Positions 56,010 through 63,903 are shown, numbered from the stretch's first letter. The stretch is DNA of 64,000 nucleotides from an uncultured Holophagales bacterium (GCA_963842525.1 CAWJGT010000003.1:320001-384000), one strand, 5' to 3'. The notes: generated by a model not told the origin, from the sequence alone. Translations and numbers: made by a program.

Positions 56010-56086
56010 CGGGACGTGGCGCAGCCTGGTAGCGTACCTGAATGGGGTTCAGGGGGTCCCGGGTTCAAATCCCGGCGTCCCGACCA
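56010..56086 (+). tRNA. tRNA-Pro(GGG)
   Basis: CGGGACG acceptor stem, anticodon arm cctga-atGGGgt-tcagg, GGTTCAAATCC, CCA end. Confidence 0.97.
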
Positions 56087-56197: not shown

Positions 56198-56497
56198 TCA
56201 ATACAGAATTTTGTGCCTCTCGATCGTCCTGGTCATGGTCGTCCGCTCGCGCCAGTCGAGGTAACCACAGAGAGGGTAGCGCCGGGGGGCGGTTTTTCGC
56301 CCTGCTTTGCGGTAGGGTGGGCCGTCGCCTCGCTCAGCCCAGTCTTCGAGGGTTCGGACGGATACCTGCTCCAGGTGCGCCAGCTCGCGCGAGGTGAGGT
56401 CTCGGTAGTCGAAGATCGCGTCCAGGCACTGGCGCCGCGGTAGGCCCTCCGCCAGCCGCCGCAGCAGCTCGTTGAGGCCGGGTCGAAGCTCAGTCAA
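56198..56497 (-). CDS. Excisionase/AlpA-like HTH protein
   Basis: LTSRELAHLEQVSVRTLEDWAERGDGPPY; GGAGGG RBS before TTG. Confidence 0.7.
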   Translation of the reverse strand: MTELRPGLNELLRRLAEGLPRRQCLDAIFDYRDLTSRELAHLEQVSVRTLEDWAERGDGPPYRKAGRKTAPRRYPLCGYLDWRERTTMTRTIERHKILY

Positions 56498-56879
56498 GAT
56501 CTGGCCCTCCTTCACAGCGGCGGCGCTCGAGGATTCTGTAGATGCACTTGGGCGTGATCGGCCCCTTGGGCCGGATAAAAACGGGCTTGGCGGAGGCCCA
56601 GAGGCGACGCTCTGAGAGCCAGGCGAGGAGCCGGCCGCCGAGGTCGGCTGGCAGCTCGGCATGCCAGGTGACGCCGTTGCGTTGGACGGTGACCCAGAGG
56701 ATGCCCCGAGCCATGGTGATCGCCGTGGCTTGCAGTCTGGCGATTTCCCCCGCGCTCAACCCTGCGGCGGCCAGAGCCATGATGGCGCCATCGCGCAGCC
56801 CCACGGGCCAGCCGGCCCGCAGGCGGGCCGGATCGACCCCGGGAAGAAGGATGCGCGCCTGCTCGGGGCTCAGGATCAT
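56490..56879 (-). pseudogene. Truncated tyrosine recombinase-like fragment
   Basis: RDGAIMAL..AGLSAGEIARL resembles box I with catalytic Arg replaced by Ser; no HxxR/Y box. Confidence 0.55.
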
Positions 56880-57592
56880 CAGAAGGGATCCGGGCCGGCG
56901 GGGACCAGAGTCACTCGGTTGCGGAAGGAGGTGGTGGAGCCGGACCAGGCCAGCTCGACGGTGCCGGTCTGCCCGTGCCGGTGCTTTGCCACGATCACTT
57001 CCGCCAGTCCTCGCAGGGCCTCGTTGTCGGGTTCGTAGACCTCGGGCCGGTGGATGAAGGCGACCTGGTCGGCTGCCTGCTCGATGGCACCGGATTCAGC
57101 CAGGTCGGCGAGCTGCGGGCGCGGGTCGCTCCGGCGCGTCAGCTCGCGGTTGAGCTGGGAGAGGACGAGCACCACCACGCCCAGCTCGCCGGCCAGCTCT
57201 TTGAGGCGGCGGGTGATGTGGGCGATCTCCAGCCGGCGCTGCTCGAAACGAATGCCGGTGTTGACGAGCTGAAGGTAGTCCACGACCAGGAGGGCGAGGT
57301 CGGGATGGCGGGCTTTGAGCCACCAAGCCCTTGCTTCGAGGTCGCGCAGGACGAGCCCTGGAGTGTCGTCGAGGTAGAGGGGGGCGGCGAGCATGCGGCG
57401 GGTTGCTGCGTAGAGGTCTTGCCATTGCCGGCCGGAGAGGTGGCCGGCTCTCATGCGATGGCGCTCGAGGAACCAGTCGCGGGGCTCCAGGCGGGTGCGG
57501 ACCTGGGCGATGCGCATGGGCTCCAGGAGGAGGGCGCCGAGGACGGCTTTTTCGGCTTCTTCGCTGTGGGGCAGGACGAGCTTGCGTTTCAT
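56879..57592 (-). CDS. DnaB-like helicase with large internal deletion
   Basis: LPHSEEAEKAVLG N-terminus fused directly to VDYLQL, LSQLNR, ESGAIEQ, AKHRHG; no Walker A. Confidence 0.75.
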   Translation of the reverse strand: MKRKLVLPHSEEAEKAVLGALLLEPMRIAQVRTRLEPRDWFLERHRMRAGHLSGRQWQDLYAATRRMLAAPLYLDDTPGLVLRDLEARAWWLKARHPDLALLVVDYLQLVNTGIRFEQRRLEIAHITRRLKELAGELGVVVLVLSQLNRELTRRSDPRPQLADLAESGAIEQAADQVAFIHRPEVYEPDNEALRGLAEVIVAKHRHGQTGTVELAWSGSTTSFRNRVTLVPAGPDPF

Positions 57593-58473
57593 CGGGTTGC
57601 CTTTCTCAGGCGAACGTCGGTGCCGCCGGTGCGGACGTGGAGGCCGGAGAGCCAGCGCGAGAGCAGGGACGGGGGCATGGCGGCGTTGGGGTTGCGCAGG
57701 AGCTCGGGAAGAACCTGGCTGGTGATGACGGTGGGCAGACAGCTTTCGTCGCGGGTGCGTGTGATGAGGATCAGCCGCTCCATGTACCAGTCGGCGGCAG
57801 CGCCGGAGAGGGGCTCGTCGAGGACGAGCAGCGGGGTGACGAGGAGGGGGGCGATGACCTCTTCGCTGACGATGAGGTCGCGCTGGATGCGCCTCGCCAG
57901 CTCGGGGCCGGAGATCCAGCGTCCGCGCCGGCCGGTGCGCAGGTGCTCGGCGAGGAGGATGGTGGCGATGCCGGTCTTGCCGGTGCCGGTGGGACCCCAC
58001 ATGGCAACCCAGCGGGGGGTGCCGGTCCAGTGCTCCAAGGCTTGGGGCCAGGGGCGCTCGAAGTGGGTGGACCAGCTCTCGCGGGTGAGGCCGCGCAGGA
58101 GCTTGGGGATGCCGGCGTCGGCTTCGGTGAAGGCGGTCGCGGCTCTCTGGGCGTCGTGGCAGGTGTGGCAGAGGAGGTCGGCGGGAATGGCGCCGAAAGC
58201 GACCTGGTCTTCGTGGCACTGACGGCAGATCCAGGGCCGGCCCCCGAACGAGCCCTCTCCCCCTGGCCCCCTCTCCCGTGCGGCCGCCGGTCCTCCGCCC
58301 CGAACGGGAGAGGGGGAAGGCAAACCCTCACCCCCCTGGCCCCCCTCTCCCATCCGCACTCCCTCCGCCCGGGCGAGGGGGGAATGGGTCCTCACCCCCT
58401 GGCCCCCTCTCCCATCTTCCGACCGCCCCCCGCCGGGAGAGGGGGGACGCATGCCGATCGTTTCGTGGGTCAT
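57589..58473 (-). CDS. DnaC/IstB-like ATPase with a REP-derived in-frame N-terminal insert
   Basis: GPTGTGKT, LLVLDE, TVITS; two CxxC motifs. Confidence 0.75.
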   Translation of the reverse strand: MTHETIGMRPPSPGGGRSEDGRGGQGVRTHSPLARAEGVRMGEGGQGGEGLPSPSPVRGGGPAAARERGPGGEGSFGGRPWICRQCHEDQVAFGAIPADLLCHTCHDAQRAATAFTEADAGIPKLLRGLTRESWSTHFERPWPQALEHWTGTPRWVAMWGPTGTGKTGIATILLAEHLRTGRRGRWISGPELARRIQRDLIVSEEVIAPLLVTPLLVLDEPLSGAAADWYMERLILITRTRDESCLPTVITSQVLPELLRNPNAAMPPSLLSRWLSGLHVRTGGTDVRLRKATR

Positions 58474-59331
58474 GACTCCTCCGTGTTGTTGATGATTTCG
58501 AGGGCTTGCTGCCAGCGGGTCTCGTCGGCACCTGCGGCTCTCAGGAGCTCGCGGCCGGCCCGGGCATCCATCGGCCTGGCCGGCTCGCGCCGGACGGCTT
58601 GCTCCATGACCACGCGGTGGATGTAGGCGGCGGGCTCGCGCTTGTTGGCGAGGCCGGCCTGGACCAGCCGGCCCAGCAGGACGAGGAGAGGCTCGACTCC
58701 ACCAAGGGTCTTCGACCAGACGCCGATCTGGCCAGGGCTCGGCAGCGGGACGCCCGCTTCGGCGAGCAGAAAATTCACTCGAGAGACCGCGGATTGCGGT
58801 CCCGACAGGGGCCGGAGACCGAAGGTCTCCTGATTTTTTTCTTTCTGTTTTTCTTCTTCTGGGGGGTTAGGGGGGATATGGGGGTTTGGGGGAAAAGGGG
58901 GGACCGGGGGGAGAGAAAACTGGCAGTCGGCTTCCAGTTTTTCGCCAGAAAACTGGCTCGGGCTTCCAGTTTCTCGCCGGAAAACTGGCAGTCGGCTTCC
59001 AGTTTCTTCGGAAAACTGGCAGCGGGCTTCCTCTTTTGGTCGGAAAACTGGCAGTCGGCTTCCAGTTTTCCTTCCCGAGCAGAAGGCGGTAGGTGGAAAG
59101 CTTGCCGCGGCCGTGGTGGCTGGTGATGGCGAGCTCGCCGGCGGTGACCAGCTCCGCAAGGATCTGCCGGACGCGGCGATTGCCGAGGCGGGCGCGGCGC
59201 TGCAGCGTAGCCTGGTCGATGGTCCACTCGCCGTTGTGGTCGGAGTAGCTGGCGACGGCGACGAGGACGATGAGGTGGGACCCGCTCTGGCGGGAGTGCT
59301 CCCAGACGGCGGCGAGGTGCTCAAGCCCCAA
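58470..59331 (-). CDS. Phage replication initiator-like HTH protein (frameshifted)
   Basis: N-terminal HTH (LVAVASYSD..QATL..RRVRQILAEL..GEL), internal iterons, PPxPP linker. Confidence 0.7.
58916..59070. repeat. Five iteron-like palindromic repeats (AAAACTGG-N9-CCAGTTT) next to a T-rich tract
   Basis: gaaaactggcagtcggcttccagttt and variants at about 30-33 bp spacing; T-rich 58830-58860. Confidence 0.85.
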
Positions 59332-60456: not shown

Positions 60457-60708
60457 TCATGAGGGGGACCGCTCCTGGCCGGCTACGCCCAGGGCGAGGT
60501 GGGCGGGAATGCCGGTAAGGGTGACGATCTGGCGGAGGAACCGCCGCGAGGGGTGGCGGTGGCCTTGCTCCCAGCAGCTCACCGTGGAGTGCCGGACCAT
60601 CGGGTCGAGGAGGCTGCCGAGGGCTTCCTGGCTGAGGCCCCGGGCCAGGCGCCAGCTCCGCAGCCGCTCGCCAAAGGTTGGTTGGTGGACGGGGCAACTG
60701 GATGTCAT
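60457..60708 (-). CDS. Cro-like XRE HTH protein
   Basis: FGERLRSWRLARGLSQEALG..TVSCWEQG..PS. Confidence 0.82.
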   Translation of the reverse strand: MTSSCPVHQPTFGERLRSWRLARGLSQEALGSLLDPMVRHSTVSCWEQGHRHPSRRFLRQIVTLTGIPAHLALGVAGQERSPS

Positions 60709-60813
60709 GAGAAACAAGGTATGACCATTCCGGCAACAGTGTCAAGAGGGAAATTGTGTTCCCGATCATCTCAGGGGCTTGATTTTGCATCCTGCAACAT
60801 CTATGATGCCGCC
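60709..60813. promoter_or_regulatory. Divergent sigma70-like promoters giving probable leaderless transcripts
   Basis: Plus strand: TTGATT(60779)-N17-TATGAT-N6-ATG. Minus strand: TTGACA(60745)-N18-TACCTT-N7-ATG. Palindrome ttgcatcctgcaa in the plus spacer. Confidence 0.7.
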
Positions 60814-61191
60814 ATGGCTGGTACAGATCCGTTCGAAGGACTGGGAAAAGCTCTGGCCCAGCTCCGGGAGCGGGCAGGCTTTGCCACGCAGACGGAGGCG
60901 GCTGAGGCCCTGCGGTTTGACAAAGGACAGATGTCGCGATGGGAACATGACAACCCCCGCCCGACGCTGGATAATCTGGGGCGCTTGCTGGCAGGCTACG
61001 GGGCTACAGTGCAGGATCTGGCAGCCGCCCTCGGTGGCGCTGCGGAAGCCAAGGCCGTGGAGCGGAGCCCTTCCGACGAGGAGCTGCTCAGGTCACTGAC
61101 GGAGGCGATCCGCCGCGTCGAGGGGCGCCAGACCGAGACGGAGAGCCGCGTCGAGCGGCTGGAGAAGGATCTCGAGCGGGACACGGGGTAG
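60814..61191 (+). CDS. CI-like XRE HTH repressor with C-terminal coiled coil
   Basis: LRERAG..TQTEAA..QMSRWEHD..PTLDNLGRLL; no S24 peptidase domain. Confidence 0.82.
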   Translation: MAGTDPFEGLGKALAQLRERAGFATQTEAAEALRFDKGQMSRWEHDNPRPTLDNLGRLLAGYGATVQDLAAALGGAAEAKAVERSPSDEELLRSLTEAIRRVEGRQTETESRVERLEKDLERDTG

Positions 61192-61280
61192 ACCTCACCC
61201 CCCTGGCCCCCTCTCCCATCGCTCTCCCCCCTACCGGGAGAGGGGGGACGGTGTTCCAGGCTTCAGAAGCGAGATCGGGC

Positions 61281-62096
61281 TCAGAGCGGCGGATCGGAGG
61301 TGGATGGCAGTTTCGCCATTTCCTTGACCAGCTCGGCGAAGTCGTGGGAGTGCGGCTCAGTGCACAGAATGTCATAGGCCCGCTCGTAGGCAAGGCGGGC
61401 GGCTGAGAACTGCTGAAGCTCACGACATAGACGGGCGTGCAGCCACTCGGTTTTGGCAGTCAACCGCCCAGGAGGAAAGCGGCGGAAATAAGGTTCCAGA
61501 ATGGCCAACGCTGATGCTGCTGCGGTGAATCGACCGTCTGCGATCAGAGTCTCCACAAAATTGTGACCGGTCGTGGCGAGAAGTTCGATGGGCGTGCCGT
61601 GACCGAGCAGGCCGAGTGCTGAGCGGTATGCATTAAGTGCGCGTTGCCGCTCACCCCAATCGAAACAGACAAGCCCGAGAAGGTTGTAAGTGCGCGCCTC
61701 GGCGAGTGAGTCGCCGATCGTTTTATGCACCTCGATAGCGATGGTTAGAACATCCGCTGCGCTTTCGAATCTCTTCGTGTCACGATGAAGGCTGGCTGTA
61801 ATTTCGAGCAGATGAACTCTGGTCGGGAGGTCGGACGTCGGCCGTGAGGCTGCCCGTTCCAGTGCCCGCTCCGACTCCTTGTAGCGACCGGCGATGCGAA
61901 GGGCATTCCCGTATTGCGTCCAAGCAGCGACGATGAGGTCCTCTGGCAGCTCGTGACTCTTCTCTTCCGCGAGAGCAACGGCCTCGCTTGAGAGCTTGAG
62001 CATCCCGGTCAGGTCTTCATAGCGAGCTGCAAACGCTGCATCAATGAGCTCTTTCACTCTTACAGCGTTCGCAACTCGCTTGCGTTGCAAGACCAT
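61281..62096 (-). CDS. TPR-like helical repeat protein
   Basis: AWTQYGNALRIAG, EARTYNLLG, HNFVETL; AGGAAGGAG RBS. Confidence 0.75.
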   Translation of the reverse strand: MVLQRKRVANAVRVKELIDAAFAARYEDLTGMLKLSSEAVALAEEKSHELPEDLIVAAWTQYGNALRIAGRYKESERALERAASRPTSDLPTRVHLLEITASLHRDTKRFESAADVLTIAIEVHKTIGDSLAEARTYNLLGLVCFDWGERQRALNAYRSALGLLGHGTPIELLATTGHNFVETLIADGRFTAAASALAILEPYFRRFPPGRLTAKTEWLHARLCRELQQFSAARLAYERAYDILCTEPHSHDFAELVKEMAKLPSTSDPPL

Positions 62097-62156
62097 TAGC
62101 GCTCCTTCCTGCCCGGGGACTTCGGCGTAAGTATACGCGGAAGGAGCTGGCGATGT

Positions 62157-62366
62157 TCAACCCCCCGGGCAACCCCAGGGATCTATGGAGCAACCACTCT
62201 GAGTGGTCGAGCTGTCCGGCGGAGGGGGAGGAGTCGGACGTTCAACGGCGGCAGGTGCGTAGAGGCCGAACGCTGCGGCTGTGGCGCGCATGATATCGCC
62301 CCACCAACCTGAGGAGAGAGACAGTGTAACAACGAAAACAGGGACCAGACGAGAGAACATGGTCAT
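62157..62366 (-). CDS. Small putative secreted peptide ending SGCSIDPWGCPGG
   Basis: G-rich RBS, hydrophobic N-terminus, Pro-rich linker, C-terminal Cys-x6-Cys. Confidence 0.7.
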   Translation of the reverse strand: MTMFSRLVPVFVVTLSLSSGWWGDIMRATAAAFGLYAPAAVERPTPPPPPDSSTTQSGCSIDPWGCPGG

Positions 62367-62607
62367 TGGACACCCCCCTTTGGATCGGATTCGTATTTAT
62401 TGCGAACCCGGAAAATATATTACGGCAACCGGAGACCGCGTACAACGCGATCAAACTCGGTATGGTACGCCTGATTGGCGACTTGAAAAAGACTTGAGTC
62501 GGTCGTAGGCCGTGGTGGTGGCCGGGGCGAGTCCTCACCCCCTGGCCCCCTCTCCCATCGTCCAGCCGCACTTCCCCGGGAGAGGGGGGATGTAGACCAG
62601 GTCGAAG

Positions 62608-63903
62608 TCACGCACGCGCCCGTGCGAGGGTTGCGGCGACTTCGCGGGCGAGGTCGGCAGTGGCGGTTTCGCGGCGGGCGGCTTCCTGGAAGACCAGGAG
62701 GGCGGCCATGGCTTCTCGGGAGATGTCCAGGTCTCGGAAGACGGTCACCATCTCGTCGGCCAGGTCACGGACTTCGGCGGCCCTCCCCTCCCCCATGTAG
62801 GAGATCGCCAGATCCAGGCCGGCGAGGCCGGCGTCGAACGCGTTGCCGTCGTCGAGGAACTTCTGGCGGACCTCGGTCAGGAGCTCGCGGGCCCGGGCCT
62901 GATCTCCCAGCCCGGCGGCGATGCGGCCCTCTACCCAATCCAGGCGAACTCGGTCGAGAGCGCTCCCGTGGGCTGCGGCGACTGCCTTCAGCTCTGGGAG
63001 AAGGTCGGCTGCCTCGCGGTGGCGGCCAGTCCTGGAGAAGTTGTCTACCAGGTTGTGCCGGACGCAGAGAACGAGGCGCGGGTCACGCTTGGGGTCGATC
63101 AGGCCGTTCGCTTTCTTCAGGATCTGGATGGCGGGCTCCGATTCACCTGTCTCGATGAGGGCAAAAGCTTTCGAGATGAGGCTCCGGCCGGCGAGGTGTG
63201 GGTCTCGGTGCTCGGGTTGTCCATCCAGAAAGAGCGACACGGCTCGCTCAAGCAGCTCGAGGGCCTCGGGGAAGCGCCGCTGCGCCATCCGAAGCGAGGC
63301 CTTCAGATCCAGCAGGACGGGCTCGTAGCCTAGGGCGTCCTCGGAGCTCTCGGTCCCCGCCTCCCACCAGGAGTCCGACATCTCGAAGGACCGCTCGGCC
63401 GCGGGCAGGCCGCCCTGCACCCGACGCGCGTTGCCGAGCCCGGCCCAGGCAAGGCTGCGGAGCTGATAGACCCAGGGTTCCTCGAACGGTTCGCCACCAG
63501 GAATCGTGTCGGCCACATGGACGGCGAGGTCGGCAAGGTGGACGGCCTCGGCCGGCTGCTCCGGCGCGGTCTGGCAGCTTGTGCGGACCAGCAGCTCGCA
63601 GAGGCCCCAGCTTACGAAGCGCGGGTCAGCACGGAGGCGGGCCAGGCGCTCTTCCGGATCCAGGGGCGCGAGCTCCTGCAGGAGACGGGGGGCCTCGGCG
63701 CGGGACCGGGCGAGAGCAGCGTCGATCGGGCCGAAGACCTCGGGGAGGGCATTGCCCTGGTGCAGCTCGAGGAGCCAGCCGCCGACCTCTCGGCATTGGG
63801 GGCAGACGGCCAGCAGGTGGAAGAGGTGCTCGTTCTGCTCGGCTGTGCGATCCATGGCGAGCAGACGCTCCAGCGCGGTGGCATCGAGGTGCTTGTGCTC
63901 CAT
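62608..63903 (-). CDS. TPR-like helical repeat protein with N-terminal HxxxCxxC
   Basis: HLLAVCPQC, AWAGLGNARRVQG, HNLVDNF, DWVEGRI; AGGAGG RBS. Confidence 0.8.
   Translation of the reverse strand: MEHKHLDATALERLLAMDRTAEQNEHLFHLLAVCPQCREVGGWLLELHQGNALPEVFGPIDAALARSRAEAPRLLQELAPLDPEERLARLRADPRFVSWGLCELLVRTSCQTAPEQPAEAVHLADLAVHVADTIPGGEPFEEPWVYQLRSLAWAGLGNARRVQGGLPAAERSFEMSDSWWEAGTESSEDALGYEPVLLDLKASLRMAQRRFPEALELLERAVSLFLDGQPEHRDPHLAGRSLISKAFALIETGESEPAIQILKKANGLIDPKRDPRLVLCVRHNLVDNFSRTGRHREAADLLPELKAVAAAHGSALDRVRLDWVEGRIAAGLGDQARARELLTEVRQKFLDDGNAFDAGLAGLDLAISYMGEGRAAEVRDLADEMVTVFRDLDISREAMAALLVFQEAARRETATADLAREVAATLARARA

Follow-up and report, generated by a model that had tools for sequence, protein, structure and literature searches.

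A candidate peptide-receptor module of Rap-Phr/arbitrium logic beside the repressor switch of a decayed prophage in Acidobacteriota

RRNPP systems are framed, in passages of two papers, as belonging to Firmicutes and their mobile elements, and the use of signalling by peptides and tetratricopeptide repeat (TPR) proteins in phages, as in arbitrium and phage Rap-Phr, is likewise treated there as a Firmicutes trait (PMC10075063, PMC9765709). Here, we analyse a locus of comparable build in a 64,000-nucleotide stretch of DNA from an uncultured Holophagales bacterium (GCA_963842525.1 CAWJGT010000003.1:320001-384000). This whole stretch is called the window, and positions are counted from its first letter. 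At the locus, a gene for a 69-residue peptide lies between the genes of two TPR proteins, TPR271 and TPR431, beside two helix-turn-helix (HTH) genes, HTH121 and HTH86. We see even chances that it is a module of peptide and receptor, similar to Rap-Phr and arbitrium, that belongs to a temperate phage of Thermoanaerobaculia (Acidobacteriota). This reading is carried by three computational results: the peptide gene is linked to the TPR271 gene, the two products co-fold, and they co-vary at their contacts. The features of the locus are as follows.

62608-63903, minus strand: TPR431, a 431-residue open reading frame (ORF) with TPR matches in Pfam
62531-62592, no strand given: REP-like (repetitive extragenic palindrome-like) host repeat between TPR431 and the peptide promoter, from the count of repeat cores
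62367-62445, minus strand: promoter-like and leader region of the peptide gene, from the alignment of 12 upstream regions
62157-62366, minus strand: pre-peptide gene, a 69-residue ORF with a basic/hydrophobic leader, a Trp-rich segment, a Pro-rich spacer and a C-terminal motif
62163-62198, minus strand: predicted ligand segment, codons 57-68 (S-G-C-S-I-D-P-W-G-C-P-G) with a Cys59...Cys66 loop, from the co-fold interface and co-variation
61281-62096, minus strand: TPR271, a 271-residue ORF matching TPR_12, TPR-only, predicted peptide receptor
61195-61252, no strand given: REP-like host repeat between TPR271 and HTH121, core at 61203-61219
60826-61191, plus strand: HTH121, XRE-type HTH with a coiled-coil-like C-terminal tail, cI/CII-like (HTH_31, E 9e-11), convergent with TPR271
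60457-60717, minus strand: HTH86, XRE-type HTH in a Cro-like position (HTH_31, E 2e-11), divergent from HTH121 and heading the replication operon

An earlier note on this DNA had described three ORFs on one strand beside a repressor, and this layout is correct: all three lie on the minus strand, and the repressor is the divergent pair of XRE-type HTH genes. The flanking ORFs are indeed related helical-repeat proteins. TPR271 matches Pfam TPR_12 with an E-value of 5e-15 and TPR431 matches it slightly below the Pfam cut-off (E 7e-7), and the two are distant paralogues (BLASTP, 26% identity across 191 residues, E 3e-9) in which the AWxxxGNAxRxxG, HN and WxxxR motifs align with each other. Both lack an N-terminal hydrophobic leader and are thus cytoplasmic by sequence, and a search of PHROGs gave no match for either. 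HTH121 matches CII-like and repressor families of PHROGs (E 2e-5 to 7e-4). The 69-residue ORF has the described hydrophobic leader, here a basic/hydrophobic N-terminus, followed by the Pro-rich spacer and the Cys-x6-Cys loop around D-P-W-G; it has no match in Pfam or NCBIfam.

Rap-Phr systems also place a TPR receptor without a DNA-binding domain beside a small pro-peptide gene, the C-terminal part of whose product is the ligand; by analogy, export would be a further shared trait. As with RapI-PhrI of ICEBs1 and the pairs of pLS20, phi3T and phi105, the module is borne by a mobile element, and the genome holds many paralogous pairs of diverged specificity. Rap proteins act by protein-protein contact on the repressor of their element, as in ICEBs1 and pLS20, or on regulators of the host. 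The module differs from Rap-Phr in being found in Acidobacteriota, a diderm phylum, and in having no detectable sequence relation to it. Its peptide gene lies upstream of TPR271 and not downstream, its ligand is a DPxG motif, often in a Cys-Cys loop, instead of a linear penta- to heptapeptide, and TPR271, at 271 residues, is without the N-terminal helical bundle of Rap. With arbitrium (AimR-AimP-AimX of SPbeta-like Bacillus phages) it shares a phage-borne peptide/TPR pair beside the lysis-lysogeny region, a peptide gene that follows a TPR gene (here TPR431, then the peptide) and a specificity that differs among phage lineages. Unlike AimR, an HTH-TPR protein that binds DNA, both TPR proteins lack an HTH, and separate XRE-type HTH genes flank the module, at which we identified no AimX-like output. 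Neither TPR protein gave a sequence match to known RRNPP receptors. We found no description of a DPxG peptide/TPR module in the literature searched, although supplements of the RRNPP papers could list candidates outside Firmicutes. In summary, the proposed module shares its logic with Rap-Phr and arbitrium and differs from them in phylum, in its DPxG ligand (often in a Cys loop) and in its output domains; homology is not demonstrated.

We fetched 32 loci with homologues of TPR271, 11 from species genomes and 21 from metagenomes. In the clade with 57-74% identity to TPR271, a peptide ORF of the same build lies directly upstream of the TPR gene at all 21 assessable loci (L001-L008, L012, L013, L015-L024 and L028, with the duplicates L005/L017 and L006/L020 included; L014, L030 and L032 hold no upstream DNA and are outside this count). 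The earlier note had named such linkage of motif and TPR gene elsewhere both as a check on its idea and as the point on which it could fail. Within the alignment of 16 peptides, P63 and G65 are invariant and D62 is present in at least 90%, with N in its place at L013. The remainder is variable: leader and spacer differ in both length and sequence, and only the C-terminal xDPxG motif is kept. When 12 upstream regions were aligned, 11 invariant columns were found in the last ~75 nt before the peptide start and none elsewhere. These ~75 nt include a GTAAAAT box, a leader of ~45 nt and a ribosome-binding site of GGAGG type (Shine-Dalgarno); for the peptide gene, the conserved region may serve as a promoter combined with an operator or leader element. 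The ORF is conserved upstream of TPR271 in 21 out of 21 loci and is preceded by a conserved Shine-Dalgarno site and leader, which identifies it as a genuine gene rather than an ORF that arose by chance.

The two Cys of the peptide are kept or lost together. Where Cys59 is present, Cys66 or Cys67 is present too, and where it is absent, so is the second Cys; several of the peptides without Cys59 terminate right after DPxG. This pattern is consistent with a disulphide loop, and hence with a product destined to leave the cytoplasm. The peptides of L004 and L018 carry two tandem DPxG motifs without Cys, which makes them multi-copy pro-peptides inside the phage-type clade. The Cys pattern agrees with the possibly cyclic peptide of the earlier note, whose export, processing and re-import are putative.

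We then considered whether the peptide fits TPR271. The AlphaFold2 (AF2) model of TPR271 is a superhelix of 13 helices (predicted local distance difference test, pLDDT, 92.5) with no signal peptide and no DNA-binding domain. Its best Foldseek matches are the peptide-binding TPR domains of KLC1/2 and LGN (E ~1e-6); no RRNPP receptor is among the matches listed, which is not evidence against a relation. TPR271 (27-row alignment) and residues 30-69 of the peptide (16-row alignment), given unpaired, co-folded with interface scores (interaction prediction score from aligned errors, ipSAE) of 0.76, 0.87 and 0.89. The median of 0.87 compares with 0.00 for the best of three controls, and the mark used was reached by 58 out of 80 solved complexes and by 2 out of 110 mismatched pairs. 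The runs had at least 66% of their contacts in common, with a partner pLDDT of ~50. The confident interface is restricted to peptide residues 57-68, which hold the conserved motif and lie in the concave groove of TPR271. By hand count, 15 of the 37 interface residues of the receptor are at least 90% conserved, compared with 50 of the 234 elsewhere, and the conserved groove residues include R25, N64, R67, H178, N179, K215 and W218. The co-fold that the earlier note had called for thus lends computational support, at the level of models, to binding of the C-terminal part of the peptide in the groove of TPR271.

Co-variation, a further check proposed for the pair, was searched in 19 non-redundant peptide/TPR271 pairs, from which L028 (TPR gene cut short) and the duplicates L017 and L020 were omitted. 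It was found at three predicted contacts.

Peptide 60 with TPR271 182: Glu with Lys in 4 of 4; Ser with Glu or Gln in 15 of 15; two changes on each side, both coinciding
Peptide 61 with TPR271 175: I/W/M/L with T or K/S/M/L, no exception; four changes on each side, three independent pairs the same way and none against
Peptide 64 with TPR271 139: W versus L or N, with L or I versus H; one clade, one event; exception L004

The exception at 64/139 is the last motif copy of L004, which has L together with L139. Several independent events at this pair of positions are ruled out by the tree: the H139 loci form a single clade and thus count as one event. Among 220 variable columns of TPR271, the best for peptide 60 is 182 and the best for peptide 61 is 175, and 139 is second for peptide 64. 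The pairs 182-60, 175-61 and 139-64 are also among the lowest-error contacts of the co-fold, which was itself built from unpaired alignments. With ~5 contacts listed for each residue of the peptide, the best of 220 columns would be a contact by chance in ~2% of cases at each position, and the scan is a stronger argument for co-variation than the sign tests on single positions. No groove column co-varies with Cys59, which is in line with a Cys pair that closes a loop and makes no contact with the receptor. As a separate observation, L015 and L016 have near-identical peptide leaders and TPR271 genes of different clades, and in each of them peptide position 64 matches position 139 of its own TPR271, a hint that recombination may occur within the pair without breaking the match between ligand and receptor.

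The TPR271 family comprises proteins of ~270 residues at 45-74% identity (127 matches), whose source names, among the matches listed, are Thermoanaerobaculia and in one case Acidobacteriaceae. The block of peptide and TPR271, convergent with HTH121 and followed by the divergent HTH86, is syntenic in 23 of the 32 loci, with HTH121 at 59-75% identity; six of the nine other loci end at the TPR gene or within 200 nt of it. A close orthologue of TPR431 (69-75% identity) directly precedes the peptide only in L006/L020, L012, L013 and L015, and the full trio is thus less constant than the pair of peptide and TPR271. The GC content of the TPR271 gene in the window is 0.586, against ~0.69 for its neighbours. 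The same holds in 10 out of 10 loci (among L001-L019), with 0.585-0.636 for the gene and 0.63-0.71 for the neighbours, which makes low GC a property of the gene family and not a mark of recent insertion in this genome.

The pair also belongs to a large family in the window genome (G000; 9.95 Mb, 34 contigs), where 49 places are similar to TPR271, most of them in frames of 400-500 residues like TPR431. A motif scan of this genome recognised 34 peptide genes with a leader and one to three DPxG motifs, often with a Trp-rich amphipathic helix and often with the DPxG motifs within Cys loops. Each of the 34 is accompanied by a TPR relative no more than 5 kb away, usually on its own strand and 60-350 nt downstream, and clustering of the neighbours of these 34 loci showed no other gene family that recurs with them. 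By a simple heuristic, 31 of the 34 peptides have K or R ahead of a hydrophobic run of at least 10 residues and 17 have A-x-A near the end of that run. We compared by alignment the 30 TPR paralogues that lie beside peptide genes (a strict sequence signature caught only 10 of the 34 loci). N64 is kept in 26 of 26 aligned, R67 in 25 of 26, and H/F/Q178-N179, R/K215 and W218 in most; positions 139, 142, 175 and 182 are hypervariable. Such a pattern is expected if the constant groove residues hold DPxG and the variable ones set specificity. Two further observations concern the distribution of the family in this genome. On contig 9, at least six TPR431-like paralogues lie in tandem (C9:424430-437312), and the cluster ends in a DPxG peptide gene (C9:437726-438493). 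The peptide genes at C14:56400-56693 (plus strand) and C34:233927-234877 (minus strand) have nearly the leader and upstream sequence of the window peptide and may mark other prophage-derived copies.

TPR431 is part of an even wider group, with more than 120 clusters of close orthologues (72-87% identity) and, among 1.84 billion representatives at 50% identity, 5558 relatives at E<=1e-3 and 1326 at E<=1e-30. In its AF2 model (pLDDT 93.8), an N-terminal helical Cys/His domain of ~58 residues precedes a TPR superhelix of ~370 residues, which has the groove N, R, H-N and W...R residues in common with TPR271. Many relatives align only over residues ~60-430 and have a different N-terminus. We sampled 32 relatives with longer N-termini, and 21 of them carry an XRE-type HTH, the combination of HTH and this TPR core being the architecture of the RRNPP(A) receptors of PlcR-PapR, NprR-NprX, Rgg-SHP and PrgX. 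In a structure search of 48,161 chains, TPR431 matched LGN (Z 21.7), Pins (20.8), RapI (19.9), NprR (18.7), phi105 Rap (18.2), RapH (17.4), pLS20 Rap (16.9) and PlcR (15.3), with AimR at Z 14.0 and 13.3 (ranks 33 and 47); RapI, NprR, phi105 Rap, RapH and pLS20 Rap are all within the top 11. As modelled, TPR431 is thus Rap/NprR-like in shape, and no more so than it is like eukaryotic peptide-binding TPR domains. Since LGN and Pins match as well as Rap does, common descent with Rap is not demonstrated.

The N-terminal domain of TPR431 consists of three or four short helices; among 32 full-length relatives, its C34 and C37 never vary, and its H5 and H29 are conserved in at least 90%. In this it is like the zinc-binding anti-sigma (ZAS) factors ChrR and RsrA, and we take these four residues to resemble the His/Cys zinc ligands of ChrR. 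It is unlike them in spacing, H-x4-C-x2-C (H29, C34, C37) instead of H-x3-C-x2-C. Pfam zf-HC2 has no match in TPR431, the domain alone has none in Pfam at E<=10, and a sequence search of the PDB returned only a chance-level match to OprJ (E 0.38). A sigma factor was considered as a partner of TPR431 and rejected: neither the element nor the prophage stretch of a related genome (G001) contains a match to Sigma70_r4_2, the closest ones being found at a distance of 36 kb in the window and at C145:177100 in G001.

The element that carries the module in the window is a prophage remnant, with the following further features.

56010-56086, plus strand: tRNA-Pro (GGG), probable integration site and left edge of the element (ARAGORN)
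56198-59331, minus strand: remains of the prophage replication/excision module (Pfam; intact counterpart in L020)
56198-56662, minus strand: HTH_17 excisionase-like gene (Pfam)
56879-57580, minus strand: DnaB gene with an internal deletion (Pfam)
57589-58473, minus strand: IstB/DnaC-like gene (Pfam)
58867-59331, minus strand: HTH_36 initiator-like gene (Pfam)
6955, 20302, 23860, 45373, 58263, 58399, 59999, 61203 and 62542: positions of the cores of the REP-like repeat in the window

To the right of the tRNA-Pro, the order is thus HTH_17, DnaB, IstB/DnaC-like, HTH_36, the HTH pair and the three module genes. DnaB positions 2-41 of the N-domain are joined to positions 58-255 of the C-domain, and ~2 kb beyond the end of the window lies a 142-residue fragment of a Mu-like major head protein (gpT; L041:2014-2442, minus strand). 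The window copy is a decayed prophage remnant at the tRNA-Pro, in which the regulatory genes are still open. In G001 (L006/L020) the order is intact: integrase, excisionase-like, small recombinase-like, full DnaB, DnaC-like, initiator and HTH86, then the divergent HTH121, TPR271, peptide and TPR431. In L020, the replication-initiator, DnaC-like and DnaB genes come after HTH86. Some 11-25 kb farther on G001 are genes for the major head protein (PHROG E 9e-20), the head protease (4e-18), the portal (E 1.5e-73) and the large terminase (6e-7), and the block thus sits between the integrase/replication module and the head-side genes of a complete-looking prophage. The intact order and the head genes together show that the module belongs to a temperate-phage family. 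The phage-like switch of the earlier note is therefore real.

Two side observations concern the surroundings of the remnant. A large gene cluster of the host for non-ribosomal peptide synthetases (NRPS) begins right after it (L041:3671 onward; G000 C3:387671+). The REP-like repeat is GC-rich, with a 17-nt core followed by an arm of the type CCCGGGAGAGGGG, and occurs in 9 copies in the window against 0.02 expected. Five of these are in the 6-kb remnant and two bracket the pair of peptide and TPR271; a like element also lies between TPR431 and the peptide gene at L013.

If the module acts as Rap-Phr and arbitrium do, the 69-residue product would be a pre-peptide, carried across the inner membrane by its basic/hydrophobic N-terminus. 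We infer the export, cleavage, disulphide formation and re-import of the peptide and its action on the switch. The ligand would be a C-terminal stretch of ~10 residues, C-S-I-D-P-W-G-C, whose disulphide loop probably closes outside the cytoplasm. It would be held in the concave groove of TPR271 and probably also in that of TPR431, given the contact residues they have in common. The family-invariant R25, N64, R67, H178, N179, K215 and W218 would hold the invariant D-P-x-G, and the variable groove positions 139, 175 and 182 would read peptide positions 64, 61 and 60, which would give each phage lineage a specificity of its own. If Rap-Phr and arbitrium are a guide, levels of the exported peptide would rise as lysogens become denser; the peptide would then be taken up again and switch the TPR proteins, and these may in turn act on the neighbouring HTH121/HTH86 switch through protein-protein contact. 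The Cys/His domain of TPR431 resembles an anti-sigma domain.

Several observations weigh against this reading. Co-variation is based on a small number of independent events (1, 2 and 3-4 per position), too few for any single sign test to reach 0.05; column 207, outside the interface list, tracks peptide 61 nearly as well as 175 does; and the passing score of the co-fold may partly reflect likeness to solved TPR-peptide complexes (KLC and LGN with peptides). In the clade with 49-54% identity to TPR271, none of eight loci (~5 non-redundant) has an adjacent peptide; an HTH gene is upstream instead, and in most of these loci, family peptides are found 1-3 kb off, beside TPR431-like genes. A scan of viral contigs with the TPR271 alignment produced 94 pattern matches, none of them confirmed. 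Of the sequencing runs listed, none was of RNA, and two DNA runs from soil metagenomes contained small shares. Neither TPR271 nor TPR431 has the N-terminal XRE HTH or the Rap bundle of RRNPP(A) receptors. TPR271 has no output domain at all, and its action on HTH121/HTH86 is only proposed. A disulphide-bonded periplasmic ligand would need re-import to reach the cytoplasmic TPR proteins and would be reduced there, and we found no dedicated importer, protease or exporter linked to the module. The window-type leader is without the clear A-x-A site seen in paralogues and could be a membrane anchor. An importer had been suggested in the form of an oligopeptide (OPT) transporter, but this gene (493-2230) is 60 kb from the module and none of the three OPT loci of the genome is linked to the module; nothing beyond its presence speaks for it, and we rejected it. 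The proposal of an RRNPP/arbitrium analogue in a diderm host is partly supported: the linkage, the co-fold and the co-variation are on its side, the architecture is unlike that of RRNPP receptors, and a regulatory output, including an effect on the switch, is putative.

The alternative that survives best, with a modest chance of being right, is that the two products meet inside the cell before export and that no signal passes between cells. TPR271 would then be an export chaperone or holdase, or a partner that neutralises a small membrane-active peptide, for instance one that serves in phage exclusion or resembles a toxin. Linkage, co-fold and co-variation fit this no less well than the main reading. 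In addition, the sequences of both TPR proteins are those of cytoplasmic proteins, the window-type leader has no clear cleavage site, and no importer is linked. It accounts less well for the paired Cys and for the classical A-x-A leaders of paralogues, which point to a periplasmic or extracellular product, and for the HTH fused to TPR431 relatives, which suits sensors better than chaperones. The two or three tandem, linker-separated motif copies of some paralogues also argue against it, as this is a pro-peptide layout; such a layout is also described for RRNPPA in passages of one paper (PMC9765709).

A decoy role for TPR271 is somewhat less probable still. The phage protein would soak up DPxG peptides of the host or of rival phages and blind the circuits of the host, and no phage decision would be involved. 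In its favour, the host has 34 peptide genes and ~49 TPR relatives, TPR271 lacks the N-terminal domain of its ~450-residue relatives, and the GC content of its gene is below that of the neighbours in 10 out of 10 loci. However, TPR271 co-varies with the adjacent peptide and not with host peptides, and in 23 of 32 loci the pair occupies the same position next to the HTH switch.

Unlikely, and well behind these two, is a precursor of a ribosomally synthesised and post-translationally modified peptide (RiPP) or bacteriocin, with the TPR proteins as scaffold or immunity factors. A leader ahead of a conserved Cys-containing core, the multi-core paralogues and weak NCBIfam matches of TPR271 to RiPP-associated TPR proteins (E 0.002-0.005, far below the cut-off) agree with it, but the TPR family is the only partner that recurs over the 34 loci, and no modifying enzyme, protease or ABC exporter recurs near the peptide genes or is found in the conserved phage block. 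Finally, TPR proteins are common and the peptide has no database family, yet unrelated neighbours, generic TPR proteins beside a chance or unrelated small ORF, are very improbable given the adjacency in 21 out of 21 loci, the TPR gene within 5 kb in 34 out of 34, the contact-specific co-variation and the co-fold at 0.87 versus 0.00.

We thus return to the peptide-receptor module of a temperate phage. What is new here is a phage-borne, TPR-only member of the family beside a cI/Cro-like switch, together with a map of specificity at the level of residues. In its fullest form, which we put forward tentatively and rate somewhat short of even chances, the reading is that of a first phage-encoded peptide communication outside Firmicutes: a private, disulphide-looped DPxG peptide and its TPR receptors would set the lysis-lysogeny switch, with parts borrowed from a large host family that has dozens of channels per genome. 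If this is true, peptide-receptor signalling of Rap-Phr/arbitrium logic exists in a diderm soil phylum, and temperate phages of Acidobacteriota own private peptide channels. The specificity of receptor and ligand would be readable from three groove positions, which makes it directly testable, and thousands of unannotated 'TPR repeat proteins' in soil metagenomes would gain a function.

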